Source: Patescibacteria group bacterium
GTDB taxonomy: Bacteria > Patescibacteriota > Patescibacteriia > UBA2591 > UBA4787
DNA: 64,000 bases
Direction: 5' to 3'
Assembly (NCBI GenBank): GCA_028715115.1
Contig: JAQUSN010000002.1
Span: 4,944-68,943, forward strand
Shown: positions 1 to 58,861 of the stretch, piece after piece
Numbering within the stretch: position 1 is the first letter of the stretch
Layout: each line of letters opens with the position of its first letter
Translations under genes and position numbers: made by a program
Notes under the pieces: generated by a model
What the model saw: only the letters and a program-made list of their open reading frames with translations
What the model was told of the DNA's origin: nothing
The model's database searches: none

Positions 1-2
1 GC

Positions 3-620
3 TATCATTTGATTACCAACGACGAATGGATGGCCATTGCTCGAGACGCGGAACAAGTCCAAGCAAACTGGGCTAACAATCAAATCGGCTCGACCGTGGC
101 TTCTGGCGGCGGCTTAAAACGAGGCAATGTCGGCATTACCGATTCAGCCAGCTACAATGGCGCTGATCCGGAAAAGGGCCTAGGCAGAAATTCCAAAGCT
201 ATGTTGACCTTAAGTAACGGTTCAACTATTTGGGATATTTCTGGCAATGTCTACGAACACGTGTCTTTTACGCCGTCTGGCGCTGACGCTACCCACCAAG
301 AATTGGACCAACCAGACGATGACGATGTTTCAGGTTGGAATTACTATGAATTTACCGCTTTGAATAATAACGGGGCCAATACTTTTACTACCGGCTACAC
401 TGACGGCAAGGCGGTTTTTCGTCCCTCTGACGATACTTGGAATTCAAATTATGGTGTGGGCAAGATTTATGCCAACTCAAACTCAGCCGCTGTCACCGCT
501 CGCGTGTTCGTTCGTGGCGGCAACTGGCACAATACGTCCCGTGCCGGAGTCTTCGGCTTGGACTTGCATTGGACCGCGTCGGGTTCGAGCTACGATGTTG
601 GTTTTCGCTGCGCCCGGTAG
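3..620 (+). CDS. DGR target protein 1 (5'-truncated at window start); FGE-sulfatase / C-type-lectin-fold C-terminal domain carrying VR1
   Basis: The reading frame is open to the window edge. Motifs GNVYEHV and C-terminal VRGGNWHNTSRAG...VGFRCAR are typical of the FGE/CLec fold used by DGR variable proteins. The last ~120 nt match TR1 except at TR adenines. Confidence 0.8.
   Translation, partial: YHLITNDEWMAIARDAEQVQANWANNQIGSTVASGGGLKRGNVGITDSASYNGADPEKGLGRNSKAMLTLSNGSTIWDISGNVYEHVSFTPSGADATHQELDQPDDDDVSGWNYYEFTALNNNGANTFTTGYTDGKAVFRPSDDTWNSNYGVGKIYANSNSAAVTARVFVRGGNWHNTSRAGVFGLDLHWTASGSSYDVGFRCAR
497..619 (+). repeat. DGR variable repeat VR1 (cognate of TR1)
   Basis: The 123-nt alignment with 1683-1805 has ~17 mismatches. 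Every one lies at a position where TR1 has A, for example TR AAT/VR CGT and TR AACTTGAAC/VR GGCTTGGAC. The 3' ends are identical (...GTTGGTTTTCGCTGCGCCCGGTA). Confidence 0.9.
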
Positions 621-642
621 TCCCCGTAGATATTTGGTATTT

Positions 643-662
643 GGCCCGCCAGCAGGCGGGTT
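643..662 (+). other. GC-rich hairpin with 4-nt loop 24 nt downstream of VR1 (DGR target-site hairpin candidate)
   Basis: cccgcc AGCA ggcggg gives a 6-8 bp stem with a 4-nt loop. Placement and shape resemble the hairpins described downstream of DGR VRs. Confidence 0.55.
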
Positions 663-720
663 GGAAATTTGGCTTTCCGACTTAATCTTGTCTGTTCCGC
701 TTCATTTGTATAATTTTTAG

Positions 721-1207
721 AAAATTTTAGAAAATAATTACGCTTTTATTGATGGAGCCAATTTACACATGGGTGTAAAAAGTTTAGGTTGGAAATTAGA
801 CCATAGAAGATTTAGAATCTGGTTAACCGAGAAGTACTCTGTCAGCAAAGCATATATTTTTATCGGCTTGATTCCGAAGAACAAAGATCTTTATACTAAT
901 CTGCAAGAAGCCGGCTTCACTCTAATTTTTAAGGAAGTTGTTTATGATGGTGACGGCAAAGGGCAATTGCGATGCCGATTTGGTCTTAAAGACAACCCAA
1001 GAAGCTTATGAAAATTTATTTGATAAAGCTGCTATTGTTTCCAGCGACGGCGATTACGCTGGGTTAGTAAAATTTCTTCAAGATAAAAATAAATTGGCGA
1101 TAGTTCTTTCGCCAAATTTAGAAAATAAATGTTCGATTTTATTAAAAAGGACAAATGCGCGCATCGCTTATCTTAACGATCAAAAATCAATTTTAGAACT
1201 AAAATGA
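721..1207 (+). pseudogene. NYN/LabA-like (PIN-like RNase) domain gene, disrupted by a +1 frameshift in a GGG run (~961-963) and lacking an ATG start
   Basis: Frame 1 encodes AFIDGANL...LGWKLDHRRF...IFKEVVYDGDGK. The continuation GNCDADLVLK...IVSSDGDYAGLVKFLQDKNKLAIVLSP lies in frame 2 (ORFs 769-1011 and 938-1207). The only in-frame start after the upstream stop is ATT. Confidence 0.6.
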
Positions 1208-1326
1208 AAAAGCCCCCGATGGAGACGAGCTCCATAAGGGTCTTCTTCGTGGTGATAATGCTAGTACAATAGATTAGAGATTAAAGTCAAATTAAAATCT
1301 GTGGATAACCTTTAAAATTATTCAAA

Positions 1327-1662
1327 ATGCTTCAAAATCTACCGATTTTTCAAAAAATTTACGATTTAATCCTTTGGCTGCATCCGGTAATTAATAAATT
1401 TCCCAAGTCGCAGCGCTTTATCTTGGGCCAGCAGACGGAAAATACAGCCTTGGAAATTATCAAAAACGTCATTGCCGCCAACGCCGAAAGAAACAAGACG
1501 GCCTATCTTAAACAAGCCAGTATTGATTTAGATAAATTAAGAATTTTAATTCGTTTAAGTAAGGACTTGAAATTTATCAGTCTCAAACAATATAGCTTGG
1601 CCGCGGAGAAAATTAATGAAGTCGGCAAAATGCTCGGCGGTTGGCTGAAGAGCAGTTGTTAA
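1327..1662 (+). CDS. avd: DGR accessory variability determinant Avd (copy 1; four-helix-bundle family)
   Basis: 111 aa, helical, ending ...EVGKMLGGWLKSS. It is paralogous to the 3129-3482 ORF and lies immediately upstream of TR1. Size and position match the Avd / 23S-rRNA-IVS four-helix-bundle family. Confidence 0.75.
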   Translation: MLQNLPIFQKIYDLILWLHPVINKFPKSQRFILGQQTENTALEIIKNVIAANAERNKTAYLKQASIDLDKLRILIRLSKDLKFISLKQYSLAAEKINEVGKMLGGWLKSSC

Positions 1663-1682
1663 TCAAAGGGGCAAAGTCAAAG

Positions 1683-1805
1683 CGCTCACGTGTTCATTCG
1701 TGGCGGCAACTGGAACAATACGTCCAATGCCGGAGTCTTCAACTTGAACTTGAATTGGAACACGTCGAATTCGAACAACAATGTTGGTTTTCGCTGCGCC
1801 CGGTA
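1683..1805 (+). repeat. DGR template repeat TR1 (adenine-rich on + strand)
   Basis: Asn/AAC-rich pseudo-ORF (NWNNTSNAGVFNLNLNWNTSNSNNNVGFRCAR). It matches VR1 with all differences at TR adenines, and sits 20 nt downstream of avd1. Confidence 0.9.
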
Positions 1806-2055: not shown

Positions 2056-3105
2056 TTAATCTTTCAACCACCACCAAAATTGATTTTTGAGATATTGGCC
2101 TAATTTGTAAGTATTAGCATGTGACAATACACCGAGATATGATTGGAGCGATTGTTCGAGCGTCTTCTCGCTAATTATACCATTTTTATATTCTTTAATT
2201 CGGCCCCTTAACTTTCGCATTATTCTTTGTTTCGTTTTAGTTTTGATTAGGCGGTAATAGGGTAGGAGTAGGTGGCCTAGAAAATCAATGCCCTGATCAA
2301 ATTTACGAATGATAATTTTCTTCGGATGAATTTTTAAGAATAATTTTTGCTCTAAAAGTTTTTTCATCGCTTTTAATATTTTTCTTAGATATTTTTTATC
2401 ATTAGCCACGACAATAAAATCATCTGTATAGCGCAAATATTTTTTAATTTGTAATTCATGCTTTACAAATTGGTCAAACTCGTTAAGATAGATATTCGCA
2501 AATAATTGAGAGGTCAAATTACCAATCGGGAGGCCTCTCTTTTTAAATAGATCGGATTGATTAGAGCAAAAACTTTCAATAATTTCCTTAATTAACCACA
2601 TTGCCTTGTCGTCTTTTATCTTTCTGCTGACAATTTCTAATAGAGTATCATGATCCACGCTGGCAAAGAATTTACTGATATCGCATTTGAGGATAAAACA
2701 AGGTTTGGTGTGATTAGCACTAGTAGCTCGTAGAATTTTGGTTAGACAATTCACGGCCTTGTGTGCTCCTTTGTTAATTCGACAAGAGAAAGAATGGCCG
2801 ATAAAGGTTGGTTCAAAAATTGGATTCAAAACAGTAAAAACCGCATGATGCAGTACGCGGTCACGAACCAAGGCTTTGTGAATGTGCCGTTGTTTGGGAT
2901 CGGTAATAAAGAAAGATGTGTATGGGCCATGCTTGTAAGCATGGTTTTGTAAGTCCCGGTACAATTGGAAAATATTGGGCTCTAAATTAAATTCAAACTT
3001 CAGGATATCTGATTTTTTCTTTTTATCTTGGCGAAATTCGTCCCAAGCTGAAAACAGATTTTCCAAAGAGATGATCTTTTCAAACAGATGGCTATAGATC
3101 TTCAT
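2056..3105 (-). CDS. DGR reverse transcriptase
   Basis: 349 aa RT with the YTDDF (YxDD) catalytic motif and LPIGNLTSQLFANIYLNEFD. The SQ substitution in motif 4 is the DGR-RT hallmark. Flanked by TRs and avd genes. Confidence 0.9.
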   Translation of the reverse strand: MKIYSHLFEKIISLENLFSAWDEFRQDKKKKSDILKFEFNLEPNIFQLYRDLQNHAYKHGPYTSFFITDPKQRHIHKALVRDRVLHHAVFTVLNPIFEPTFIGHSFSCRINKGAHKAVNCLTKILRATSANHTKPCFILKCDISKFFASVDHDTLLEIVSRKIKDDKAMWLIKEIIESFCSNQSDLFKKRGLPIGNLTSQLFANIYLNEFDQFVKHELQIKKYLRYTDDFIVVANDKKYLRKILKAMKKLLEQKLFLKIHPKKIIIRKFDQGIDFLGHLLLPYYRLIKTKTKQRIMRKLRGRIKEYKNGIISEKTLEQSLQSYLGVLSHANTYKLGQYLKNQFWWWLKD

Positions 3106-3128: not shown

Positions 3129-3482
3129 ATGCCCAACGAATTCGACGTTCCCATCTTAAAAAACATCTATGATCTCTACAAAATATTCTATGGTTTTCGC
3201 CACGGTGTTTCCAAACAGGATCGCTACACTATTTGGCAAAAATCAGAGAACCTGATTTTAGAGATTATTGAAGCCATTCTTTTGGCTAGCCAGCAGAGCA
3301 AGATTAATAAAGTGCCAACCCTTGAGCGAGCTAGCGCTAAACTTAACTTCTTGCGAGTTTTTATACGCTTGATGAAAGAAGTCAAAATCATTGACCAGAA
3401 AAAGTATCTAACCTTGCAAGAAGCTGTTGATGAAATTGGCCGGATGCTTGGTGGTTGGTTAAAATCTAGTAAAGATTTTTAA
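3129..3482 (+). CDS. avd: DGR accessory variability determinant Avd (copy 2)
   Basis: 117 aa paralog of 1327-1662 with the same C-terminal ...EIGRMLGGWLKSS. Its start lies 23 bp from the divergently oriented RT start. Confidence 0.75.
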   Translation: MPNEFDVPILKNIYDLYKIFYGFRHGVSKQDRYTIWQKSENLILEIIEAILLASQQSKINKVPTLERASAKLNFLRVFIRLMKEVKIIDQKKYLTLQEAVDEIGRMLGGWLKSSKDF

Positions 3483-3535: not shown

Positions 3536-3654
3536 ACTTCCGGGCCGCGGACAGACCGATGTTGTCGTTGCGGTTGTCATCCCAGTTGTTGTTGACGTTG
3601 AGACCATTCGCATCGAAGTTGCCGACGTTGACGCGGTTACCGTCCGAAGTGAGA
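3536..3654 (-). repeat. DGR template repeat TR2 (adenine-rich on - strand)
   Basis: The plus strand is T-rich (ttgttgttgacgttg...), so the minus strand encodes an Asn-rich stretch (GNRVNVGNFDANGLNVNNNWDDNRNDNIGLSAARK). It matches VR2 and VR3 with differences only at plus-strand T, i.e. minus-strand A. Confidence 0.85.
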
Positions 3655-3985
3655 AAACTGTCTGTTTTCATCCAAATCTTCAGAAGTTGAGGTTTGCCGT
3701 TCCGTTAAGAATCTATATCCTCTTCTTCTTGTTTACCCTGAGTCGTGGGAAGGGTAGTTTATTCGAGAGTACTCCGATTAAATCAGAGATCTCCACTAAA
3801 AACAGACAAGAAGTTCTGCCTCCATCTTTTTTCACGCGCTATCGCAATCCGTAGAAAGGCGATACTCTGGTGAAGTCTCCCGCTTCCGCCGAAGCTTCGA
3901 CAGGTAGGCAAAAGAAGAGACGTTCGGCGAGGTTAAACCTTGATCTAGCCTTCATTAGCCGAACATTATTATAATATATCAATTT

Positions 3986-4046
3986 TAACAAAAAAGAAAG
4001 AGCCTCCACACAGAGCTACCGGTTGTGGTAGATGTAACGGAGGCTC
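3986..4046 (-). terminator. Rho-independent terminator / conserved 3' element downstream of target gene 2
   Basis: gagcctcc...ggaggctc forms an 8-bp outer stem enclosing an inner hairpin (ctacc ggttgt ggtag). On the minus strand a T-run follows. The block is conserved with 5135-5210. Confidence 0.6.
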
Positions 4047-4085: not shown

Positions 4086-4913
4086 TCAGAACTTCCGGGC
4101 CGCGGACAGACCGATGTGGTCGTAGCGGTAGCCATCCCAGTCGTCGACGACGAGACCATTCGCATCGAAGTAGCCGACGTAGACGCGGTAACCGCCCGAA
4201 GTGAGATCGGAGCAGCGGCCATATCTGGTCGGATTGACGTACTGACCGCTCTTCTTGAAGTACAGCATGGCCTTGGTAACTTCGGTCACAGCCGGCGGTA
4301 CCTCATAGTTGGTCGGCAGCATACTCTGTTGGTCAGCGAAGGTCTTGTCTTCGGAATTCGGTACGATCTCGAGGGGCATCAGCCGCCAACGCAACTTGCC
4401 GGTCGTTCTGACGGCGAAACGCTGGTTGCTGTACCAGGCCTCGGAACTGTACTTGTAGAACCTGGGTTGGCCCGGGGCCGGCTGCAACTGCTGCCACTTC
4501 ATGATGGTCAGCGGAGTGCCGTTGATCCGATCGAGCTCGAGGAAGGCGATGTGCGTTTCGCGAATCGTCTTGCCGGGCACGAAGGGGCACGGGCTGTTGA
4601 GCACTGTCTCGTTCCAGGGGAATCGGGCAATCTCTCGGAGCTGCTTCTTGGTGAAGCGTGCTCCGTAAAGCGCGGCCCAATCGTCAGGACCGAAGAAGCG
4701 TTCGTTACCCATCAGCTCACGGACGAGTTCCAGCGAGATCGGACTCTCGACTTCGCCGCTCAGGAAAGCTTCCGCCACCTTGCGGGCATAGTCAGGGTCG
4801 GTTCGCACACGATCCCAGTGGACCTTCGTCACTCCTCGATCTTGGAGTGCCTTGAGGGTCGATCCGATTTCTCCGAACTCCAGAGTCCAGAGACCATTTT
4901 GGTTTGTACCCAT
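4086..4913 (-). CDS. DGR target protein 2 (C-terminal CLec-like VR2); paralog of target 3
   Basis: 275 aa with C-terminus ...YRVYVGYFDANGLVVDDWDGYRYDHIGLSAARKF. The last ~116 nt match TR2 with A-site substitutions. GC-rich gene (~60%). Confidence 0.8.
   Translation of the reverse strand: MGTNQNGLWTLEFGEIGSTLKALQDRGVTKVHWDRVRTDPDYARKVAEAFLSGEVESPISLELVRELMGNERFFGPDDWAALYGARFTKKQLREIARFPWNETVLNSPCPFVPGKTIRETHIAFLELDRINGTPLTIMKWQQLQPAPGQPRFYKYSSEAWYSNQRFAVRTTGKLRWRLMPLEIVPNSEDKTFADQQSMLPTNYEVPPAVTEVTKAMLYFKKSGQYVNPTRYGRCSDLTSGGYRVYVGYFDANGLVVDDWDGYRYDHIGLSAARKF
4091..4206 (-). repeat. DGR variable repeat VR2 (cognate of TR2; one 3-nt deletion relative to TR2)
   Basis: The 3' end (acttccgggccgcggacagaccgatg) is identical to TR2. 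Internal differences are T to C/A/G on the plus strand. One CAA triplet of the TR CAA-repeat is missing. Confidence 0.85.
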
Positions 4914-5228: not shown

Positions 5229-5993
5229 TTAAGCTTCGAACTTCTGGGCCGCGGACAGACCGATGCCGTCGTCGCGGTAGTCATCCCAGTCGTCGCTGAC
5301 GAGGAGACCATCCGCACCGAAGTAGCCGACGTAGACGCGGTTACCGTCCGAAGCGAGATCACTGCAACGAACGTAGACGCTTTCGAACAAGCGCTTGCCG
5401 GTGGCCAGGAAGTACAGCACCATGGTGTAGATCACCGTCTGAGCGGTGGGTGTGTATTCGTTCTCGGCCAGCAGCGCCTGCTGCTCGGAGTAGGTCTTGC
5501 CGATGGAGTTGTCCACCGGTGTCTTCCGAATCAGTTCCCAGCCGACTTTGCCGGGTTGCGAAGCGAACTTCTGGTTGTTGTACCAGTCCTGACCATAGAA
5601 GACTTTGCCCTTGCCGGCAACCAGGCGACGGATCTCGATGATCGAGGTGCCGAGGTTGGCTACCAGCAGGTGGGTGTTCTTGCAGGCTTCGAGTTCACCC
5701 TCGGTGAACGGCACTTCGGCCAGGGCCTTGATGATTTCGGGGCTCGGAGTGAGTCCGAGATGCTTGGCCGCCTCTTCGATGCCGAGCATGTTCGTGCCCA
5801 TGATGGCACGGGCACGTTCCTGCGATGTCGTCGGCGTAAAGCCGCCGGCGGTTGCGAATGTGGCCAGGCGATCGACGAAGGCGGGGTCGGCGTTGATTCG
5901 ATTGACGATCTGATCGGCGTTGTCTCCGAAAGCAACCCGGAGACGCTGTTCCGCGGCATTGAGATCGCCGGCGGGGACTTGTGTCCATTTCAT
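5229..5993 (-). CDS. DGR target protein 3 (C-terminal CLec-like VR3); paralog of target 2
   Basis: 254 aa ending ...GNRVYVGYFGADGLLVSDDWDDYRDDGIGLSAAQKFEA. The last ~119 nt match TR2 with A-site substitutions. GC-rich. Confidence 0.8.
   Translation of the reverse strand: MKWTQVPAGDLNAAEQRLRVAFGDNADQIVNRINADPAFVDRLATFATAGGFTPTTSQERARAIMGTNMLGIEEAAKHLGLTPSPEIIKALAEVPFTEGELEACKNTHLLVANLGTSIIEIRRLVAGKGKVFYGQDWYNNQKFASQPGKVGWELIRKTPVDNSIGKTYSEQQALLAENEYTPTAQTVIYTMVLYFLATGKRLFESVYVRCSDLASDGNRVYVGYFGADGLLVSDDWDDYRDDGIGLSAAQKFEA
5240..5358 (-). repeat. DGR variable repeat VR3 (cognate of TR2)
   Basis: Same length as TR2 (119 nt). Differences sit at plus-strand T positions (ttg to ccg/tcg/ctg/agg etc.), plus a single C/T difference near the 3' (IMH-like) end. 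Confidence 0.85.
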
Positions 5994-6283: not shown

Positions 6284-7618
6284 TTATTTATTCTCTTCCA
6301 TTACGGTAATCTTTTTATCTTTGTATTTTAATTTGCTTTTTAGATTAGCCAGTAGCTCCCGTTTGTCTGAGATACCGCCTTCTTTTAAGAGATACTTAGC
6401 ATATTCGCGGATATTAACTTCACTTTCTTCAACCAAGGTTGGCGCGGTTTTGGTATTGCTGTCAACGATTTTTCTTAATTTATTAAATCTTTTAATTTCA
6501 TCTTGGAGCTTAACTCTTATCCCCAGTTCATTGATACTTACAATATCTATAATCTTAAACAATTCGTCAATTAATTCCTCTTCCCTAATATATTTATTTT
6601 TACAGTTTCTATCTTTGGCCCTTGAGCAGCCGTAATAAATATAATGAGCCGAGCTGCCATCTTTGAGGGTTTTCCATTTTTCTTCAGCCGATATTCCTGA
6701 CCCGCAATAGCCGCAAGTGAATAGTTTAGTGAAGGCGAACTCCTTGTTTTCTCGGACGATCTGATCTCTTTTTAATTGTGCTTTGGCCTTTTCAAATAAT
6801 TCCTGAGTGATAATTGGCTGATGTTTGCCGGTATACCAGTTGCCGCTGCCTCGGGGATGTTCAAAAGCTCCATAATAGAACGAATTGTCTAGAATGCGAT
6901 AAATCCCGCTTAGGGTTAGCGGCTTATTGCCTCGAGTATAGAAGTTCAGCTCGAATCTTAGCCAGTTGTACAGCTTAATGCCGGAACAATATTCGTAAGC
7001 AACCTTTTCGAACATTTTTTTAATTATTGGAGCCCTAGCCGGATCAACGACGATCTGGCATTTTTTATCCATCAATTTTTGGTTTAGATATCCAAGGGGA
7101 GCTAGTCCGGGCCATAAGCCCATTTCTACCCTAGTGCGCAATCCTCGTTTAACGTTAATACTGCGATTATCATTTTCCAGTTTAGCTTGCGAACCCAATA
7201 TCATTAACAGAAATTTCTCGTTAGGGTTATTGGTAAATTTTTGGCCAAACGTACGAATCTCTATTAAAAGCTTGGCATCCATTAAATCAACTATTTTACC
7301 CAGATCGCCGGCATTTCTTGAAATTCTATCTGGCGCCCAAGTCAAAATAGCGTTATATTTTCCCTGTTTGATTTCTTCGATAATCTCATTGAAGATCGGC
7401 CTCTGTCCTGCTTCTTTGGCTGAATGCGACTCACGCTTCACGGCCGTGACCTCCAAGTTTTCCTTTTCGGCCAATTGAAACATTTCTTTAATCTGGCTAT
7501 CAATCGACAGTACCTGTCTTTCTTCACTTTCAGTGCTTTTTCTAGCATAAAGGCAATATTTAGCCTTAATTACTTGATTAAGTCCTTGATTTTTTGCTAA
7601 GGTTTTTGTTTGTTCCAT
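6284..7618 (-). CDS. Large serine recombinase (resolvase/invertase N-domain + recombinase domain + zinc ribbon)
   Basis: The N-terminus YCLYARKSTESEERQVLSIDSQ carries the catalytic Ser context. A recombinase domain follows, with a Cys cluster CGYCGSG...YYGCS. It is ~60% identical to 48535-49896. Confidence 0.85.
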   Translation of the reverse strand: MEQTKTLAKNQGLNQVIKAKYCLYARKSTESEERQVLSIDSQIKEMFQLAEKENLEVTAVKRESHSAKEAGQRPIFNEIIEEIKQGKYNAILTWAPDRISRNAGDLGKIVDLMDAKLLIEIRTFGQKFTNNPNEKFLLMILGSQAKLENDNRSINVKRGLRTRVEMGLWPGLAPLGYLNQKLMDKKCQIVVDPARAPIIKKMFEKVAYEYCSGIKLYNWLRFELNFYTRGNKPLTLSGIYRILDNSFYYGAFEHPRGSGNWYTGKHQPIITQELFEKAKAQLKRDQIVRENKEFAFTKLFTCGYCGSGISAEEKWKTLKDGSSAHYIYYGCSRAKDRNCKNKYIREEELIDELFKIIDIVSINELGIRVKLQDEIKRFNKLRKIVDSNTKTAPTLVEESEVNIREYAKYLLKEGGISDKRELLANLKSKLKYKDKKITVMEENK

Positions 7619-7923
7619 AGGTTTTTGTCTTATTGGTTACTATGGAAAGGAATGACAAAACTGCTCAAAGAGTCCAGAGCAGAGGAGTAGACAACCTGTC
7701 GGTAACTAAGCTTCACTTTTTACTTTGTTATGTTAAGATATAAGCACAATTAATTTGCCTAAACCCATGGATTTCTGTGGGCATGGCAATAAAAACCGGT
7801 AAAGGATATTAAGCTCGTCGTCAGAGCTCCTTTACCGGTCATATCCTCGAAAGGGGGTATGGGTAGCGCAAGCTATCGCTGGCGGCGAGCTTTGTGTTTT
7901 CCGCCAAATAGTAATTTTATTTT

Positions 7924-8778
7924 ATGAAAAACAAGGTTATTAATTGGCTATTTATTCTCTGTCTTTTTCTAGTTTCTTTATCTTTGACTGGCTGTTCAAG
8001 CCAGACCACTAATTTAATAAACCAGCCAACAAACAATGTTGTTAATCAAACTAATAGTCCGACAGAAGCAGCAAACGAGGTGGTGCAAAACCTTCAAAAC
8101 AATGTTGTCATTAACAATAAAGATAATAGTGTGGTGGATAATAATCAAATCCCCGACTATTATTCTGTCACTAAGGTGGTTGACGGCGATACTTTTAAGG
8201 TCTCAATCAATGGCTCAGAAAAAAGCATTCGTTTGATCGGCCTTGATACGCCAGAAACTGTTGACCCAAGAAAGCCAGTTCAATGTTTTGGAGTTGCGGC
8301 ATCAAATAAGGCCAAAGAGTTATTGTCTAGCAAAAAAGTAAAACTCGAAGCCGATTCATCTCAAGGCGATCTTGATAAATATGGCCGCTTGCTTCGTTAT
8401 GCTTTTTTGGAAGACGGTACCTTCTTTAACAAGTGGATGATCGCTAACGGTTATGGTCATGAATATACGTACAATTTGCCGTATAAATACCAAACAGAGT
8501 TTAAAGAGGCCGAGAGATCAGCCCAAACCAATAAATTGGGCTTATGGGCCGACGGCGCCTGTGATAGTCAAGCCAATACACAATCCCCAGTTCCGGCCAC
8601 ACCAGCAGCTACGGGGCATGTTTTTTACACCTCATCTTACTACACCTCTAAAACCTATTATTGTGATACAGATTTGGCATGGAAAAATCTTAGCCCAAAA
8701 TACCTGAAACAGTTTTCAAGCGAAGTAGAGCTATCAAAGGTTTATCCTACCAAGACTCTTCACGAACCATGCAAATAG
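7924..8778 (+). CDS. Thermonuclease (staphylococcal nuclease-like, SNase) lipoprotein
   Basis: Lipoprotein signal ...LSLTGCSS. SNase motifs DGDTFKV...IRLIGLDTPE...YGRLLRY. Confidence 0.8.
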   Translation: MKNKVINWLFILCLFLVSLSLTGCSSQTTNLINQPTNNVVNQTNSPTEAANEVVQNLQNNVVINNKDNSVVDNNQIPDYYSVTKVVDGDTFKVSINGSEKSIRLIGLDTPETVDPRKPVQCFGVAASNKAKELLSSKKVKLEADSSQGDLDKYGRLLRYAFLEDGTFFNKWMIANGYGHEYTYNLPYKYQTEFKEAERSAQTNKLGLWADGACDSQANTQSPVPATPAATGHVFYTSSYYTSKTYYCDTDLAWKNLSPKYLKQFSSEVELSKVYPTKTLHEPCK

Positions 8779-9984
8779 TTATCCGTTTGTTGAGCTATTA
8801 TTTTTAGGTGGTGGCCATGGCTTACTAATCATGCCTCCCTCCTTATTATAATCTATAAGATATTCTCGTGTTTTCTCCTTGCTCTCCATGAGCTCAAGGA
8901 AATGGTTCCAGTCTTCTACCGTTACCACCTCTCCATTTGGACCGACGCTTTTTGAGCTATAGGGAGCACTGATGCAAAAATCAGGATGAATATTTCTCTT
9001 TTCTCTCTCTTCAGGACTTAAATATTGACCGAAATATTTTTCATAAAGCGCTGGTGGATAAAATTCGCGAGTTCGAGGGCCGGTTACTAGTAAATATTCC
9101 TGTAGCCAAATTAATTCATCCGAGCAACTGCTTTTTATTCTTTCAATATCTTCGGGTTTGAATTTCTCCGGCCAAAGGTTTCGATCATTATCATCCAAGA
9201 GGGGATAAATGCAGCAGGCAGCATTGGCAATCCGATTCTGAACAATTTCCCTATAAAGCTTCATAATCAATGATGAATTGTCTAATAGATTGCCCAATAC
9301 GACAATGTTGGTTGATTTATCGCCGGCCGGCATAATCTCATTTTTAAACCATTCGCACATCCTTTTGCCTTCTTTGTAATTTTTCGCGGATTGCCTGTCT
9401 TCCAAATCGTCACAAATAATCAGGTCGGGTCGATGCTGTCCGAATTTTATTCCCCTGATATTTTGCCGTAATCCGGCAGCCATAATCATGGCTCCGTATT
9501 TTTTTAGCAAAATATGGTTTGGCCCCCAATCTTCATGATCTTGACGGAAGCCGCCGAAGTCATTATTTAATAGTTCATTGCTTTCCAGTTCGTATTTTAT
9601 ATTTTCCAGATGAAGCTTGGCTTGTTTTTTGTGCTGACTTAGAATCAGCACAAACTTTTTTTGCGGTTTGCCGATGATTGACCAAATAATGTTCGAAAGA
9701 TTCATGATGGTGCTTTTGCCTGAACCGCGAAAAGCGATTATGTTAACCAATCGATATGAGGGATCTTCTGTGATAGTCAGCATCTGTTTGTGGAAAATAG
9801 CCAAAGGATAGCTTAAATGATCAGCCAAGTAAATTTTTGAAAACCAATAGTGACTTTGCTTGGCAAGTTCTTGTCGGAATCGGCGGCTTGTTTTTATCTG
9901 TTCAAAAATGGTCCCAATCGGCTGGGTCTCGTTCCTTCTTGGCACCAGCTCCGTCTGTTTTTGGCGGGATTCCTGATTTGTCAT
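8779..9984 (-). CDS. Phage terminase large subunit (TerL)-like ATPase/nuclease
   Basis: Walker A AFRGSGKST and Walker B LIICDDLED, with C-terminal acidic nuclease-like motifs. It is overlapped upstream by a TerS-like ORF. Confidence 0.75.
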   Translation of the reverse strand: MTNQESRQKQTELVPRRNETQPIGTIFEQIKTSRRFRQELAKQSHYWFSKIYLADHLSYPLAIFHKQMLTITEDPSYRLVNIIAFRGSGKSTIMNLSNIIWSIIGKPQKKFVLILSQHKKQAKLHLENIKYELESNELLNNDFGGFRQDHEDWGPNHILLKKYGAMIMAAGLRQNIRGIKFGQHRPDLIICDDLEDRQSAKNYKEGKRMCEWFKNEIMPAGDKSTNIVVLGNLLDNSSLIMKLYREIVQNRIANAACCIYPLLDDNDRNLWPEKFKPEDIERIKSSCSDELIWLQEYLLVTGPRTREFYPPALYEKYFGQYLSPEEREKRNIHPDFCISAPYSSKSVGPNGEVVTVEDWNHFLELMESKEKTREYLIDYNKEGGMISKPWPPPKNNSSTNG

Positions 9985-10354
9985 ATTCCTCTTTTGCCAC
10001 TTCCGTGGCTATTTTTAACAATTTAATTTGCTCCGGCTTTAATTCTTCATAATACGCTTCTTTTACTGTGTGCAGTTTCTCGGCATATTGCGAATGGTGA
10101 TTCTTAAGCCAATAAATAATGGCCGTGATATTTCCTTTTTTTATCAAGCTGAGCAACTGACTTTCAGCCATATCGTTGATTAGTGACGATCCATCAGAAA
10201 TGGCATCATCGGCTAATCGGGCAAAGGCTTTATCTTCCTTGCGCCAACGATAATAGCTGCTTCTGTTGAGCCCGACCTTTTCACAGGCAAACTGAACTAT
10301 GGGGACCCTCTTTAGTTGCTCAAGCAGATTTCTTTTTATTTCTTTGGTCTTCAT
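9902..10354 (-). CDS. Phage terminase small subunit-like / HTH DNA-binding protein
   Basis: 150 aa with an N-terminal HTH-like segment (FACEKVGLNRSSYYRWRKED). Position immediately upstream of and overlapping TerL. Confidence 0.45.
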   Translation of the reverse strand: MKTKEIKRNLLEQLKRVPIVQFACEKVGLNRSSYYRWRKEDKAFARLADDAISDGSSLINDMAESQLLSLIKKGNITAIIYWLKNHHSQYAEKLHTVKEAYYEELKPEQIKLLKIATEVAKEEYDKSGIPPKTDGAGAKKERDPADWDHF

Positions 10355-11751
10355 AAAACCTTGTGCGCTTTAACTCCGGTTAGCTTTTCCCATCGGTTCC
10401 GAATAACCTCTGCATAGACGGGCGACTTCTCCATTAGATAGCAGCGACGTTTCATCTTCTCGGCAGCGATCAGTGTTGATCCGCTGCCGCCAAACGGCTC
10501 AATAATTAAGTCATTTCTCTTGGTTAAAACCTTGAGATAGGGGATAAGAACTTCAAGCGGTTTGGTTCCGAAGATAATCCCTTGGCCTGAGCTTTTCTCG
10601 TCGGCGGCCGTATATTCGATATAATCGGTGGGGCAATATTTCTTGCCGGCTTCGTAGCTTTCCCAATGCGGTTTGCCGGAAGTGGCGTAAAGAGCGTTTT
10701 CATATTCCTCTTGCAGTAATCCTTCTTCGGGCCCCAAATTCAAATCAACTTTCCCCTGGGTTCCCACGGCGGCAATATCTGTCTTATTGAAGAATTTATA
10801 TTTAGCTGCAAAGCCCTGGCATCTGTTTGGCACATGCCAAGTAATCGTATTTCTGTATTTCCAGTGTTTCTCTAATTCCAACCAAATAGTTTTAAGATTC
10901 TTGGGATTTTCAAAGACAATAATTGAAAAGTCGGACTTTTGAATCTTGGCAACATTAGCCATCCATTTTTCGGTAAAGTCCGGCGGCAATTCATCTGTTT
11001 CCAGATATTTGCGATCTCGCTTTAAACCAAATCCCTCGATTGCTTCGCCGTGCTTCTTTTTGCCTTTTAAATAATCTAAGAGGTAAGGTGGGTCAGTGAA
11101 ACACATATCTGCACTTTCATTGCCCATTAGCCTCAAGACGTCATTTTCAATAGTTGAATCGCCGCACATTAAGCGGTGATTACCTAATTGCCAAACGTCG
11201 CCCCTTTGAATCTCAATTTGAGAAATGTTTAATTTATCCAATTCTTTCTTTAGATCAAATATTTCTGGGCTTTCGTCAATGCCAAAGATGTTATCCATCT
11301 CTTCCGAAGAGAATCCAACGTCGCCCAGCATCTTTTCGCCAAAATCAGCCAAAATGTTCCAATCAAACTCACCGGTGTTTTTATTGAGGCGAAGATTGAT
11401 TTCTTTCTCAAGCTCTAGGCCTGGGATATCAACCCAAACAATGGGCACGGTGGTAAAGCCCAATTCTTTGACAATCTTTAACCGAAAATTCCCGCCTAAC
11501 ACCACCCCTTTGCGGTTTAACGCTGAATTAACAATTAAAGGATCAATTAGTCCGAATTTAGCAATTGATTCTTTTAGATTTTTGCTTGTTTCATCTGACC
11601 AGACTCGTGGATTATATTCACACGGTTTTAGTTGATCAATTGAAACGTACTCGACCTTTAGAATTGACTTCGCGACAGAAGTTTCCATAGGTATTAAATT
11701 AATGATTAATAAATTAAATAAACAAAAGCGACCCAAAAAAGAATTCATCAA
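10351..11751 (-). CDS. ParB-like nuclease domain fused to DNA methyltransferase (N6-adenine/N4-cytosine, beta class)
   Basis: N-terminal ParB-N-like region, a DPPY motif (MCFTDPPYLLDY) and a C-terminal SAM motif I (IIEPFGGSGST). This is the typical phage ParB-MTase architecture. Confidence 0.8.
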   Translation of the reverse strand: MMNSFLGRFCLFNLLIINLIPMETSVAKSILKVEYVSIDQLKPCEYNPRVWSDETSKNLKESIAKFGLIDPLIVNSALNRKGVVLGGNFRLKIVKELGFTTVPIVWVDIPGLELEKEINLRLNKNTGEFDWNILADFGEKMLGDVGFSSEEMDNIFGIDESPEIFDLKKELDKLNISQIEIQRGDVWQLGNHRLMCGDSTIENDVLRLMGNESADMCFTDPPYLLDYLKGKKKHGEAIEGFGLKRDRKYLETDELPPDFTEKWMANVAKIQKSDFSIIVFENPKNLKTIWLELEKHWKYRNTITWHVPNRCQGFAAKYKFFNKTDIAAVGTQGKVDLNLGPEEGLLQEEYENALYATSGKPHWESYEAGKKYCPTDYIEYTAADEKSSGQGIIFGTKPLEVLIPYLKVLTKRNDLIIEPFGGSGSTLIAAEKMKRRCYLMEKSPVYAEVIRNRWEKLTGVKAHKVL

Positions 11752-11961
11752 AAATTGATGTAACCCTTTTTTGGGCCGCGTTGTACATGTTGGAGATCAA
11801 CCTAGGTTGGTGATTATCTTGATTCGATGGCTAATGTTATCGTAGCCTATCGGCGGAATTACGCGGTCTGTATTAAATTGTTATTTATAGTATAAAACAA
11901 GAATATATTTTGGCAAGAAAAGTTATCCACATATCGTGAACCCTGTGAACATAGTATACAC

Positions 11962-11989
11962 TTGACAGTTTTTAAAATGATGTTATGAT
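11962..11989 (+). promoter_or_regulatory. Sigma70-like promoter (TTGACA - 16 nt - TATGAT) for the repressor gene
   Basis: ttgaca at 11962-11967 and tatgat at 11984-11989, directly upstream of the ATG at 11992. It lies in the divergent region between ParB-MTase and the repressor. Confidence 0.4.
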
Positions 11990-11991
11990 AA

Positions 11992-12645
11992 TTGCATATG
12001 ACTATTCATAAAACACAACTTAAATTATTAGAATTAATGAAAACACACAATCTGAATGGCCTGTCTTTGCGTGATATTGGTGAGTTAATTGGGATAAAGG
12101 ATAAACCCCATATAATTAGGCATCATCTTTTACAATTGAAGAAACGAGGACTCATCTATTGGGATCAATCAAAAAAAGAGATTAGAAAAATATCAAAGGG
12201 AATAGAGAGCGATAGCGGTTTAGTTCCCATTCCCATTCTTGGCGCGGCTAATTGTGGCCCGGCCACTCTTTTGGCTGAACAAAATATTCAAGGATATCTT
12301 AGGATATCAAAAAGATTTTTGCCTCGAGTTACAAAAAATATCTTTGCCATTAGAGCCGTTGGTTCATCTTTGAATAGGGCCGATGTTGATCACAAAGGAA
12401 TGCATATTGATGATGGCGATTATGTTTTGATCGATAGTAGTTATCGAAACCCACAAAACAAAGATTATGTTTTATCTGTTATTGATGATGTTGCCAATAT
12501 TAAGAAGTTTATCAGAGAGAAAAATAAAATAACTTTATTATCTGAATCAACAGAAAATATTCCACCCATCTATATACACCGTGATGATAATTATATGATT
12601 AACGGTAAGGTAATCCAAGTAATTAAGAAACCTAAAATAGATTAA
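11992..12645 (+). CDS. LexA/CI-like repressor (N-terminal winged HTH + S24 peptidase domain)
   Basis: An HTH-like N-terminus (LSLRDIGELIGIKDKPHIIRHHLLQLKKRGLI), then an S24-like AIRAVGSSLNRA (Ser) and a later Lys. The divergent orientation from the phage genes is typical of a CI repressor. Confidence 0.65.
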   Translation: MHMTIHKTQLKLLELMKTHNLNGLSLRDIGELIGIKDKPHIIRHHLLQLKKRGLIYWDQSKKEIRKISKGIESDSGLVPIPILGAANCGPATLLAEQNIQGYLRISKRFLPRVTKNIFAIRAVGSSLNRADVDHKGMHIDDGDYVLIDSSYRNPQNKDYVLSVIDDVANIKKFIREKNKITLLSESTENIPPIYIHRDDNYMINGKVIQVIKKPKID

Positions 12646-22783: not shown

Positions 22784-23133
22784 TGGTGGAGATGGCGGGT
22801 ATTGCACCCGCGTCCGTAGGTTAAGAAATAAAAACACTTACTTTCATATTCTGGTTTGTTTCTCGATCAGAGCGTAAGAACCAGACAAAAACGCTCCAAC
22901 CAGAGCCCAGATTTTCTAAACTACCTGACCGAGGGCGCAATCAAATAGTCGATCCTGCTGAATAAAGCCGAGAGTACTAGCAGGAGTCACGCTCTCGACT
23001 CACTACCTAACAAAAATTAGGCAGTGGCAAATGCAAAGTTATTGGCATTTGTAATTGCGAGAGAATAACGGTAACTCTCAAACGGAAAGCCGTTTTTATT
23101 TCTTGTGAGCCTCGTCAATTTTTAAACATCCCC
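22784..23133 (-). ncRNA. ssrA: tmRNA (ssrA), ~350 nt, candidate tag (A)NNFAFATA
   Basis: The minus strand reads 5' GGGGATGTTTAAAAATTGACGAGG... (compare GGGG...AUUCGACGGG). Its 3' end is tRNA-like: ...GGACGCGGG-TGCAATA-CCCGCCATCTCCACCA. An internal ORF gcc aat aac ttt gca ttt gcc act gcc TAA is present. It lies adjacent to smpB. Confidence 0.85.
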
Positions 23134-58235: not shown

Positions 58236-58245
58236 GGGGGGGGGG
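58236..58245 (+). repeat. Homopolymeric G10 tract immediately upstream of a TTGCCA -35-like hexamer and the ECF sigma gene
   Basis: acttcGGGGGGGGGGttgccataattaaat lies ~38 nt upstream of the ATG at 58283. Such a run is unusual in a ~35% GC background. Confidence 0.6.
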
Positions 58246-58282: not shown

Positions 58283-58861
58283 ATGATAGGCCAAGATATA
58301 AATTTAGTGCGGCAATATCTTAATGGCGATGAACAATCGCTAGAGATTTTGATTAAAAAATACCTTAAACAGATTTATGGTTTTGTCTATCGTTATACAA
58401 ATAGCGCTTCAGAGACAGAAGACATAACACAGGAGGTCTTTTTGCGGATGTGGCGAAATATTAAAAAATTTGATCAAAAGAAAAATTTTAAAACCTGGCT
58501 ATTTGCCATTGCTAAAAACGCAGCTATTGATCATTTCCGAAAATACCGCCTGGCAACAGGTGAAAGAAAAGCGGTGCCTTTTTCGAACTTTGAGAATGAA
58601 GACGGCAGCAATTTAATCTTTGATACTTTAGCTGACCTTGGCCCCACGGCTCACGAAATTTTCGAAAGAAAGAATTTAGTCCAAATTATTTCTTTAGCTG
58701 TGGAAAAACTCTCCGAAAAATACCAAACCGTCCTTTCTCTTTATTATCACAAACAATTAAATTTCCGGGAAATTGCCGAGCAACTTAATCAATCTATTAA
58801 TACGGTGAAAAGTAATCACCGCCGAGCTATTATTGCTTTAAAAAATATCCTATTAAAATAA
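58283..58861 (+). CDS. RNA polymerase ECF-type sigma-70 factor
   Basis: Sigma region 2 (ITQEVFLRMWRNIKKFD...FKTWLFAIAKNAAIDHFRK) and region 4 HTH (LNFREIAEQLNQSINTVKSNHRRA). Confidence 0.85.
   Translation: MIGQDINLVRQYLNGDEQSLEILIKKYLKQIYGFVYRYTNSASETEDITQEVFLRMWRNIKKFDQKKNFKTWLFAIAKNAAIDHFRKYRLATGERKAVPFSNFENEDGSNLIFDTLADLGPTAHEIFERKNLVQIISLAVEKLSEKYQTVLSLYYHKQLNFREIAEQLNQSINTVKSNHRRAIIALKNILLK

Follow-up and report, generated by a model that had tools for sequence, protein, structure and literature searches.

Genes and features of the locus

The left end of the window, by which is meant the whole 64 kb stretch of DNA that was analysed, holds parts of two DGRs in the chromosome of a Patescibacteria (CPR) bacterium (Table 1). 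The genes of DGR-1 follow the order RT1, target1 (with VR1), NYN, avd1 and TR1. The window does not include RT1 or a second target, which contains VR1', and both are known only from near-identical public contigs; RT1 is located upstream of target1 and ends ~0.85 kb left of the window (contig L082, positions 859-1950). DGR-2 is a separate system of another RT/avd clade, which adjoins DGR-1 tail to tail and is visibly active.

Table 1. Coordinates of DGR-1 and DGR-2 features within the window
Feature	Position	Strand	Basis or detail
target1 (DGR-1 target gene), 3' part, 205 codons; start left of window	1..620	+	
VR1, variable repeat, last 41 codons of target1	497..619	+	16/16 mismatches at TR1 A, codon positions 1-2
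GC-rich hairpin, 20 nt past VR1; core GGCCCGCC-AGCA-GGCGGGTT	640..665	+	fold and scan
NYN-domain gene, probable pseudogene, two overlapping frames (769-1011, 938-1207)	744..1207	+	Pfam NYN E 5.5e-7, second ORF
avd1, accessory variability determinant of DGR-1	1327..1662	+	NCBIfam DivGenRetAVD, 123.6 bits, E 3.6e-36
TR1, template repeat; donor for VR1 and VR1'	1683..1805	+	30 A, 12 AAY codons
Structured RNA directly 3' of TR1: stem-loop with UNCG-like tetraloop and second helix	1806..1958	+	covariation, model search
RT2, reverse transcriptase of DGR-2	2056..3105	-	RVT_1 3e-23
avd2 (DGR-2), divergent orientation to RT2	3129..3482	+	bAvd 5e-19
TR2, template of VR2a and VR2b	3536..3660	-	repeat comparison
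Structured non-coding RNA domain, ~330 nt, 5' of TR2	3661..4000	-	alignment A2, 12 loci
DGR-2 target 2a (VR2a 4088-4212)	4086..4913	-	GC 58.7%
DGR-2 target 2b (VR2b 5240-5364)	5229..5993	-	GC 60.0%

The avd1 gene scores 123.6 bits against the NF033474 cut-off of 80 and also matches Pfam bAvd (7e-28). It ends 20 nt upstream of TR1, and together avd1, TR1 and the conserved stem-loop RNA 3' of TR1 form one co-oriented unit. The alignment of this RNA element (A1) contains 17 invariant columns and compensatory changes in 10 of its 16 pairs, and a model (R2) from whose construction the window was left out matches positions 1796-1958 with 81.6 bits (E 1.8e-17); no Rfam family matches the element at the gathering threshold or at E<=1. 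Its counterpart in the literature is the structured RNA downstream of TR in Bordetella phage BPP-1, where Avd binds a stem-loop that ends in a tetraloop (Handa et al., bioRxiv 10.1101/2023.10.23.563531), and the element is by analogy a candidate Avd/RT-binding and priming region.

The NYN gene is probably a pseudogene of a recurrent accessory gene, as intact NYN ORFs adjoin the RT in five other loci (L093, L113, L123, L124 and L127). The same slot is occupied by a DUF3800 gene in the paralogous cassettes L164 and L165. Past VR1, the GC-rich hairpin is a candidate target-recognition cruciform and/or terminator. The same hairpin, with the loop AGCG, lies downstream of VR1' in L164. A conserved homing signal was considered and rejected, because a comparable post-VR hairpin is present in only 5 of 23 RT1-clade relatives; for this reason the role of the hairpin is presumed and it is retained only as a candidate.

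RT2 is 35% identical to RT1, and avd2, which is 40% identical to avd1, groups with the avds of RT2-clade loci in 77 of 78 cases. The canonical layout of that clade is TR(+), avd(-), RT(+). For the RNA domain 5' of TR2, RNAalifold predicts 88 pairs on alignment A2, 52 of them with compensatory changes; as with the element 3' of TR1, Rfam yielded no match for this domain under either of the two cut-offs.

A repeat pair that differs only at template adenines

When VR1 and TR1 are aligned without gaps (offset 1186), 16 of the 123 nt are mismatched and each mismatch falls on an adenine of TR1 (A>G 11, A>C 4, A>T 1), whereas the 93 non-A positions contain none. VR1 is therefore copied from TR1 with no replacements other than at adenines. 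An independent repeat search recovered the same direct repeat as 497-622 / 1683-1808 with 87% identity, and the 23-mer GTTGGTTTTCGCTGCGCCCGGTA occurs at only two sites in the window, one in VR1 and the other in TR1. The original prediction had counted about 17 substitutions, all at template adenines, and had proposed an alignment with a tabulation of mismatches by template base. That tabulation upholds the adenine restriction, with no mismatch at any non-A template position, and corrects the count to 16. The seventeenth difference (G at 620, C at 1806) is the first base beyond the repeat; it lies at a template C, where the target1 stop codon TAG faces TAC. The identical 3' stretch is likewise shorter than the ~35 nt first proposed, as only the last 25 nt (595-619) are free of mismatches, and this identity alone says little because the stretch includes only two template adenines. 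In the reading frame of VR1, all 16 changes occur at codon positions 1 or 2, and 10 of the 12 AAY codons of TR1 are altered. The Asn-rich pseudo-ORF that had been noticed over TR1 is indeed present at 1690-1884 (MFIRGGNWNNTSNAGVFNLNLNWNTSNSNNNVGFRCARY...).

A second variable repeat, VR1', is found ~300 genes away on the same contig (L164 1346-1468). It differs from TR1 at 14 positions, 13 of which are TR1 adenines, leaving a single non-A mismatch. TR1 can be told from TR1', the template adjacent to VR1', by 13 sites, and VR1' has the TR1 base at every one, from which it is evident that VR1' was written by TR1. VR1 and VR1' are not identical at the TR1-A sites, and each therefore stems from its own retrohoming event with TR1 as template. 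No VR matching the paralogous TR1' was found, and TR1' looks orphaned. A scan of L165 for adenine bias found no TR/VR pair, although the TR-3' element is present there. The sequence P0129 was also considered as a diversified allele of VR1' and rejected, as its contig (L168) places it in other genomic surroundings, as a third paralogue.

Paralogous target and cassette copies in the genome are the only observation that speaks for an ordinary duplication or gene-conversion tract with normal divergence, whose adenine bias would be due to chance or composition. Given 30 adenines among the 123 nt of TR1, the chance that all 16 mismatches fall on A is ~3e-12 (hypergeometric test). The bias is also directional, because the A-rich copy is the non-coding one, the changes are limited to codon positions 1-2, and VR1' exhibits the same pattern against TR1. 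A truly diverged paralogue has a very different appearance: the L168 copy is mismatched to TR1 at 41 positions, of which half are non-A, and it lacks the hairpin, which also means it is not a current target. The tabulation of mismatches contradicts an ordinary duplication, which is effectively refuted and to which we assign a negligible probability.

The diversified protein

Full-length target1 comprises 488 aa, with an N-terminal prepilin helix (class III signal / N-methylation) and a C-terminal FGE/C-type-lectin-like domain. VR1 forms the extreme C-terminus of the protein and the modelled target1 fold matches DGR variable proteins, so that the repeat occupies the position typical of DGRs, the C-terminal part of a variation-tolerant C-type-lectin/FGE-type fold. 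According to this model, VR1 makes up the surface, at the C-terminus of a type-IV-pilin-like protein, that binds the ligand. The N-terminal prepilin helix predicts display of target1 on a fibre resembling a type IV pilus. The combination of a prepilin helix with a VR domain is common in CPR. The diversified protein would thus be a type-IV-pilin-like fibre subunit of an episymbiotic, ultra-small bacterium, which is consistent with diversified host-attachment specificity.

Evidence for RT1 as the cognate reverse transcriptase

RT1 contains the motifs LPIGNLTSQ and YMDD, which agree with the (I/L/V)GxxxSQ and YxDD motifs of DGR reverse transcriptases. Among solved structures, its best relative is 8ub7, an RT of 328 aa (E 1e-58) that is probably bRT of BPP-1, and group II intron RTs follow at 1e-28. 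The relatives of RT1 occupy canonical VR-avd-TR-RT loci, the closest all being from CPR MAGs or metagenomes, and the layout of an RT directly followed by a pilin-like target is kept in L085 and L165.

If one considers the window alone, TR1 might be a satellite cassette that lacks an RT of its own and relies in trans on its convergent neighbour RT2, which is the sole RT in the window, is demonstrably active, and has its 3' end only 250 nt from TR1. Several observations argue against this. The RT and avd clades co-segregate strictly, as the avds of RT1-clade loci are in each of 66 cases nearer to avd1 than to avd2. The RNA element behaves in the same manner: the companion model R1 matches 49 of 80 RT1-clade loci and 0 of 80 RT2-clade loci, the latter having a conserved 5' RNA domain instead. 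Furthermore, a clade-matched RT1 exists upstream, and VR1 is unchanged in the same samples in which RT2 rewrote VR2a and VR2b. Service by RT2 is accordingly very improbable. This model and a further one confined to the window, in which an RT2-avd2 block inverts between the opposed TR1 and TR2, were both dropped because exact-match contigs reveal the upstream RT1 and because the avd and cis-RNA clades separate the two systems. Owing to the grouping of the avds and the restriction of the TR-3' element to the RT1 clade, RT1 is counted as the cognate RT of TR1, and RT2 is not its partner.

It is thus highly probable that TR1 and VR1 are a DGR pair that arose via mutagenic retrohoming with RT1 as cognate RT. 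The original prediction had reached mutagenic retrohoming from the repeats, and it is now backed by the A-only pattern at codon positions 1 and 2, by avd1, by the RNA 3' of TR1, by the fold of the target and by the clade-matched RT. Following the BPP-1 paradigm, the transcript of avd1, TR1 and the 3' element would be bound by an RT1-Avd1 complex via the 3' stem-loop, and cDNA would be cis-primed and made with misincorporation opposite A. Such cDNA could then replace VR1 or VR1' by way of the GC-rich 3' end that the repeats have in common, perhaps with the aid of the downstream hairpin.

DGR-1 appears to be switched off

Variation between strains, which had been suggested as a further check on VR1, does not include this repeat. 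VR1 is identical in all four near-identical MAGs, and VR1' is identical in the two MAGs that could be compared, such that no ongoing diversification is seen in either repeat. The four MAGs are GCA_028712295.1, GCA_028686935.1, GCA_028713815.1 and the one to which the window belongs, with proteins MDD5396103-112. Meanwhile, VR2a of the window differs from that of three MAGs at 17 sites and VR2b differs from that of L082 at 12 sites, every one of them a TR2 adenine, with a 3-nt indel in each repeat. Across 11.6 kb of the four assemblies, which are few, not independent and probably from one study or population, the differences are confined to VR2a and VR2b and the substitutions to TR2 adenines. 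The invariance of VR1 and VR1' shows inactivity over the sampled interval; it does not signify that they are not DGR repeats.

The likely source of this inactivity is a dinucleotide tract within RT1, 2.0 kb away from VR1. It falls between the motifs CRKGKGTH and GDISRYF, in an insertion of 18 aa that is absent from RT2. In the MAG of the window, as well as in L081 and L083, the tract is (AG)10 and places RT1 out of frame, whereas (AG)11 in L082 keeps the gene in frame; as only four assemblies of short-read MAGs are compared, such length differences could be partly assembly artefacts. In the annotation of the MAG of the window, the 2-nt frameshift splits RT1 into MDD5396103.1 and MDD5396104.1. 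Between L082 and L081, the 2-nt tract difference is the sole difference across 2.8 kb. VR1 of L082, the sole MAG with an in-frame RT1, is the same as in the others. DGR-1 is read as switched off because RT1 is out of frame at (AG)10 and VR1 is invariant among the MAGs. We consider it fairly probable that TR1 and VR1 are the repeats of an intact chromosomal system that is off here due to repeat slippage, probably reversibly.

Alternatively, DGR-1 could be a decaying relic in which past retrohoming was followed by conversion of RT1 into a pseudogene, with a non-functional cassette and an incidental (AG)n difference. The frameshifted RT1 in three of the four MAGs would agree with this, as would the frameshifted NYN gene, which hints at decay of the cassette, the invariance of VR1 and VR1' while VR2a and VR2b vary, and the paralogous TR1' that has no matching VR. 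The absence of changes at the non-A positions of VR1 points the other way, since few non-A changes imply little time since the last event. In addition, avd1, TR1 and the RNA element 3' of TR1 are all intact, with scores comparable to those from functional relatives, and RT1 has no lesion beyond the change of one repeat unit and is intact in L082. Finally, homologous tracts of other lengths, both in frame and out of frame, recur in the independent relatives L084, L085, L135, L146 and L165, a pattern expected of a switch rather than of random decay. On balance, a relic is unlikely, while being the most serious competitor of an intact system in its off phase.

Repeat tracts as a possible control of CPR DGRs

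The tract in RT1 is not an isolated case. Of 161 related CPR DGR loci, 40 carry a tract either in the RT itself or no more than 100 nt away, which suggests phase-variable control. Their density is 1.08/kb upstream of the RT, 0.122/kb inside it and 0.019/kb in the flanks, an enrichment whose P-values ignore shared ancestry, and all 20 tracts inside the RT ORF are on the coding strand in two loop positions. Hence, two hallmarks of phase variation are found in RT1 itself (a perfect tract in the ORF and a frame-toggling polymorphism of unit number) and another, tract enrichment with positional conservation, in its homologues. In these respects the gene resembles the contingency loci of Haemophilus, Neisseria and Campylobacter, in which unit number similarly toggles the frame, and the resemblance extends to the relatives of RT1, whose homologous tracts differ in length and occur in frame as well as out of frame. 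Unlike contingency loci, the switched gene here is a mutagenic reverse transcriptase and not a surface or modification gene, and the host is a CPR bacterium.

Based upon these features, we tentatively propose, with somewhat less than even confidence, that simple-sequence repeats, as in contingency loci, commonly control the DGR reverse transcriptases of CPR bacteria. Mutagenic retrohoming would be toggled or tuned as (GA)n or Gn tracts slip, in two indel-tolerant RT loops or in the short divergent avd-RT leader, and the organism would stochastically switch its own targeted hypermutator on and off. TR1/VR1 would then exemplify the OFF phase and the (AG)11 sister population the ON phase. A search of full-text literature and review terms found no link of repeat tracts or phase variation to DGR RT genes, which does not prove that none has been published. 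Should the phase variation be genuine, a stochastic switch on a targeted mutator would constitute a regulatory layer of DGRs that was not found described in the literature searched.

Comparison with known DGRs

The parallels between DGR-1 and the BPP-1 DGR (brt, avd, TR, mtd/VR) are numerous. Both exhibit adenine-specific TR/VR substitutions, a VR that ends a ligand-binding protein of C-type-lectin fold, the four-helix-bundle accessory protein Avd encoded directly upstream of TR, a structured RNA downstream of TR, a GC-rich 3' end of the repeat and, downstream of VR, a hairpin whose part in homing is putative in DGR-1. The order of DGR-1 is RT, target, NYN, avd, TR, as opposed to target, avd, TR, RT in BPP-1. 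DGR-1 is chromosomal in a CPR bacterium, its target is pilin-like and not a phage tail fibre, its RT1 ORF carries an (AG)n microsatellite, and TR1 serves a second VR at a distant locus. In BPP-1, it is the IMH/IMH* asymmetry which fixes directionality. No such difference is visible between TR1 and VR1, because the two repeats are identical through the last repeat base.

The DGRs of CPR/Patescibacteria were reportedly treated by Paul et al. in 2017. They correspond to 'DGR clade 2' of Roux et al. 2021 (PMC8144416), and varied cassette architectures, including loci with two RTs or two TRs, have been documented (PMC11661182). DGR-1 shares with them the host group, a cellular rather than phage-borne location, and an FGE-sulfatase/CLec-type VR domain in its target. 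In comparison, the present locus joins two DGRs of different RT/avd clades, and the cis RNA differs between the clades, being a 3' element in the RT1 clade and a ~330 nt 5' domain in the RT2 clade. In contrast to the solved DGR variable proteins TaqVP (Thermus aquaticus), TvpA (Treponema denticola) and AvpA (Nanoarchaeota), target1 has an N-terminal prepilin helix; in the literature, the only prepilin-VR combination found was a rare VR-bearing G-type pilin (PMC11661182).

On its own, the TR1/VR1 pair would add a further DGR to a lineage in which many are already known. The fact that each DGR has its own Avd and cis RNA argues for strict cognate specificity among RT, Avd and RNA. The locus also amounts to a natural experiment, in which DGR-2 rewrites its targets between samples while DGR-1 is silent.

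An adenine-specific repeat pair

A repeat search of the window recovered two direct copies of a 123-nt sequence, at 497-619 and at 1683-1805, which differ at 16 positions in an ungapped comparison. At all 16, the 1683-1805 copy has A, and given its 30 A among 123 nt, the probability of 16 mismatches all falling at A is ~3e-12. The original prediction that all differences lie at template adenines is therefore borne out. The substitutions comprise 11 A>G, four A>C and one A>T, all at codon positions 1-2 in the frame of the ORF ending at 620, and 10 of the 12 AAY codons in the template are changed in the coding copy. Since the mismatches are confined to A of the 1683-1805 copy and to codon positions 1-2, this copy can be assigned as the template repeat (TR1), with 497-619 as its variable repeat (VR1). 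Two predicted details require adjustment. The A-specific set numbers 16 rather than ~17, as the seventeenth difference (620/1806) lies beyond the repeat at a template C, where the template reads TAC and the target has its TAG stop codon. Likewise, the identical 3' stretch measures 25 nt, not ~35 nt, and contains only two template A. Chance or ordinary divergence as the source of these differences has a negligible probability: the statistics exclude it, as does comparison with a truly diverged target paralogue (locus L168). Mutagenic retrohoming is instead supported by the A-only pattern together with avd1, RT1 and a 3' RNA element. The TR1/VR1 element is a CPR diversity-generating retroelement (DGR) with a pilin-like target, a kind already known; its interest lies in the side findings, namely a putatively microsatellite-gated reverse transcriptase (RT) and strong tract enrichment across CPR DGRs, the action of TR1 on a target in trans, and cis RNAs that are specific to each clade.

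Cognate partners of TR1

TR1 is separated from the nearby RT2 by ~250 nt of non-coding DNA. For RT2, 80 related loci were collected, all from CPR/Patescibacteria MAGs, and loci were annotated by a script finding A-biased repeat pairs as well as Avd and RT ORFs. The canonical layout of this clade is VR ... TR(+), ~50 nt, avd(-), RT(+), with avd antisense between TR and RT. TR2, avd2 and RT2 match it exactly, and because they complete the layout, avd1-TR1 is not part of the RT2 unit. An exact look-up of the avd1 sequence yielded three NCBI MAG contigs, 99.7-99.8% identical to the window and extending further left, in which a second RT (RT1) lies upstream of the 488-aa target1. RT1 is 35% identical to RT2 and shows the motifs LPIGNLTSQ and YMDD, which are of DGR type. 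Among solved structures it is closest to the 328-aa RT 8ub7 (E 1e-58; group II intron RTs, 1e-28), which is probably the BPP-1 bRT.

Features of the two DGRs and of the paralogous cassette (window coordinates unless a contig is named; L082, MAG contig near-identical to the window; L164, contig carrying the paralogous cassette)
Feature	Coordinates	Strand	Remarks
RT1	L082 859-1950		363 aa; ends ~0.85 kb left of window
VR1	497-619	+	last 41 codons of ORF running off left edge of window
GC-rich hairpin	640-665		3' of VR1
NYN-domain gene	744-1207		split over two frames, 769-1011 and 938-1207
avd1	1327-1662	+	NF033474, 123.6 bits (cut-off 80); full-scoring DGR Avd
TR1	1683-1805	+	starts 20 nt 3' of avd1
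RT2	3105..2056	-	reverse transcriptase, strand opposite TR1
avd2	3129-3482	+	second Avd, beyond RT2
TR2	3660..3536	-	second template
VR2a	4088-4212		in minus-strand target 2a, 4086-4913
VR2b	5240-5364		in minus-strand target 2b, 5229-5993
VR1'	L164 1346-1468
TR1'	L164 2830-2952

Among 80 metagenomic loci with relatives of RT1, gene order is mostly the classical colinear VR-avd-TR-RT. Against the Avd proteins of RT1-clade loci, avd1 outscores avd2 in 66 of 66 comparisons, whereas avd2 outscores avd1 in 77 of 78 against those of RT2-clade loci. Furthermore, the ~125-150 nt directly 3' of the TR in the RT1 clade form a conserved structured element (17 invariant columns; compensatory changes at 10 of 16 predicted pairs). 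Even with the window left out of its training set, a covariance model matches 1796-1958 (81.6 bits, E 1.8e-17) and has no other significant match in the rest of the 64 kb, while a companion model matches 49/80 RT1-clade and 0/80 RT2-clade loci; Rfam holds no family for the element. The Avd clade test and this clade-specific element independently tie avd1 and TR1 to RT1. Both the cognate assignment and the part list of DGR-1 are thereby established: the plus strand carries, in this order, RT1, target1 (VR1), NYN, avd1, TR1 and the 3' element. The arrangement is a permutation of the usual RT1-clade order and is not peculiar to this genome, since an RT directly followed by a pilin-like target recurs in two other loci (L085 and L165).

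The counterpart of the 3' element in BPP-1 is a tetraloop stem-loop just downstream of TR, described as Avd-binding and predicted in 207 of 278 DGRs, CPR included (Handa et al., bioRxiv 10.1101/2023.10.23.563531). By analogy with BPP-1, an RT1-Avd1 complex would bind the 3' stem-loop of the avd1-TR1 transcript, prime in cis and misincorporate opposite A, and the cDNA would then replace a VR via the common GC-rich 3' end.

The RT2 clade has a conserved stretch of its own, ~330 nt of non-coding DNA directly 5' of TR2 (3661-4000, minus strand). RNAalifold predicts 88 pairs in it, 52 with compensatory changes, and a search of Rfam relaxed to E<=1 gave no family, making it a candidate large structured RNA domain of RT2-clade DGRs.

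NYN-domain or DUF3800 genes recur in or beside RT1-clade cassettes, either in the target-avd gap or just after the RT (L093, L113, L123, L124, L127; L164 1569-2330; L165 11783-12421), and are possibly accessory genes. In each of the four MAGs, the NYN gene of the window carries a frameshift. Structured RNAs are known to accompany DUF3800 genes (PMC5737381).

A distant second target of TR1

Elsewhere in this genome lies a paralogous cassette consisting of target1' (82% identical), DUF3800, avd1' (89% identical), TR1' and a 3' element of the same kind. According to protein accessions MDD5396408.1 and MDD5396409.1, it is located ~300 genes away on the window's own 308,640-nt contig. VR1' differs from TR1 at 14 positions, 13 of them A, but from its own neighbour TR1' at 27, 11 of them non-A. 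At all 13 sites separating TR1 from TR1', both VR1 and VR1' have the TR1 base, and the same hairpin lies 3' of each. Judged from these sequences, VR1' was written by the window's TR1 and not by TR1', for which no matching VR was found in the data seen. As VR1 and VR1' share only six mutated sites, TR1 wrote them in two separate events; A-specific copying from TR1 into both is thus established. A third target paralogue, on L168, has an unrelated genomic context and shows ordinary divergence.

A silent DGR beside an active one

Four assemblies of one population were compared over ~11.6 kb. Differences between the window and the three other MAGs are confined to VR2a and, in the case of L082, VR2b. 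All 17 VR2a and all 12 VR2b substitutions fall at TR2 adenine positions, and therefore DGR-2 rewrote its targets between samples, providing an internal positive control for VR1. Diversification of VR1 across strains, the further check suggested originally, was not observed: VR1 and the 488-aa target1 protein are identical in all four MAGs, as is VR1' in the two assemblies where it is readable. The element is silent in this genome. Service of TR1 by RT2 in trans is accordingly improbable, as VR1 stayed constant while RT2 was active and the Avd and RNA elements are clade-specific.

It is likely that VR1 is static because RT1 is out of frame. Its ORF contains an (AG)n microsatellite (L082 1278-1299), encoding ...SLEREREREDK...; the tract lies between two RT motifs, in an insertion of 18 residues compared with RT2. 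L082 has (AG)11 and an intact ORF, while (AG)10 and an ORF split into 147 + 207 aa are found in L081, L083 and the MAG of the window itself; this 2-nt change is the only difference between L082 and L081 in 2.8 kb. Both the OFF frame of RT1 and the stasis of VR1 against VR2a/VR2b turnover are established. A decaying relic would also account for the observed stasis, the NYN frameshift and the orphaned TR1', and we consider this conceivable, if rather doubtful: VR1 lacks any mismatch at its 93 non-A positions, and neither avd1 nor TR1 nor the RNA element is damaged, which argues against simple decay, while the intact in-frame allele and the recurrence of such tracts are left unexplained as well. 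Our hypothesis is rather that (AG)n slippage reversibly gates TR1 retrohoming.

The same in-frame 3-nt deletion occurs independently at window 4151 (VR2a) and in VR2b of L082 (window 5296-5298), removing CAA inside the template's CAACAACAAC run, which suggests RT slippage on AAC repeats during retrohoming. Separately, L081 and L083 differ by seven substitutions within ~250 nt (L081 4825-5070; amidase gene end and downstream). These are not A-specific and are the only differences in 4.5 kb, indicating local hypervariability.

Simple-sequence tracts in and near DGR RT genes

Perfect tracts, either (GA)n with 6-19 units or G7-G12, occur at many CPR DGR RT genes, at two loop positions in the ORF or upstream. 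At the site homologous to that of RT1 are (AG)9 in frame (L084), (AG)14 out of frame (L146), G9 in frame (L085), G11 out of frame (L135) and G11 with the RT split (L165). In RT2-clade genes the tracts are (GA)8 to (GA)19 or Gn and occupy another loop, immediately preceding the GLPIGN motif. A third class, in the divergent avd-RT leader, comprises G8 to G12 runs that lie 9-40 nt 5' of the RT start codon (L049, L058, L065-L080). Besides RT1, tract loci include L022, L036, L041, L050, L052, L057, L064, L066, L084, L085, L100, L109, L110, L119-L121, L124, L135, L146 and L165. All 20 tracts inside RT ORFs are purine runs on the coding strand, and an out-of-frame state exactly at the tract is found in L064, L066, L135, L146, L165 and the window's population.

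Across 161 non-redundant loci, 40 (25%) have a tract. Tract density is 1.08/kb in the 100 nt upstream of RT and 0.122/kb inside RT, versus 0.019/kb over 1.09 Mb of flanks, corresponding to 57-fold and 6-fold enrichment (nominal Poisson P 3e-24 and 2e-10, values that ignore shared ancestry). Repeat tracts at DGR RT genes are not reported in the full texts searched, which covered a review but not Paul et al. 2017, the main paper on CPR DGRs. Within the 64 kb of the window, an intergenic G10 run (58236-58245) upstream of the ORF 58283-58861 is the sole strict simple-sequence repeat, possibly a second contingency site.

Genomic surroundings

Phage-like genes flank both DGRs (window 6284-12645; L081 1044-4954), with a holin-like gene and an amidase endolysin upstream, and a large serine recombinase, terminase large and small subunits, a ParB-methyltransferase fusion and a LexA/CI-like repressor downstream. 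The chromosome also has a tmRNA (22784-23133) and six tRNA genes; within it, the DGR region is possibly a prophage remnant or else an island. A LOOT RNA (Rfam RF03000, 93 bits; 7756-7877, +) is located in the gap that separates the large serine recombinase gene (7618..6284) from a secreted thermonuclease-like gene (7924-8778).

G+C content is far higher in DGR target genes than in their genomes: 58.7% for target 2a, 60.0% for target 2b and 48.9% for target1, against 38.1% for the window. Among the RT2-clade loci (L001-L080), median G+C is 56% for the non-VR part of targets and 40% for the RT gene, and targets exceed the RT gene by >8 points in 48 of 56.
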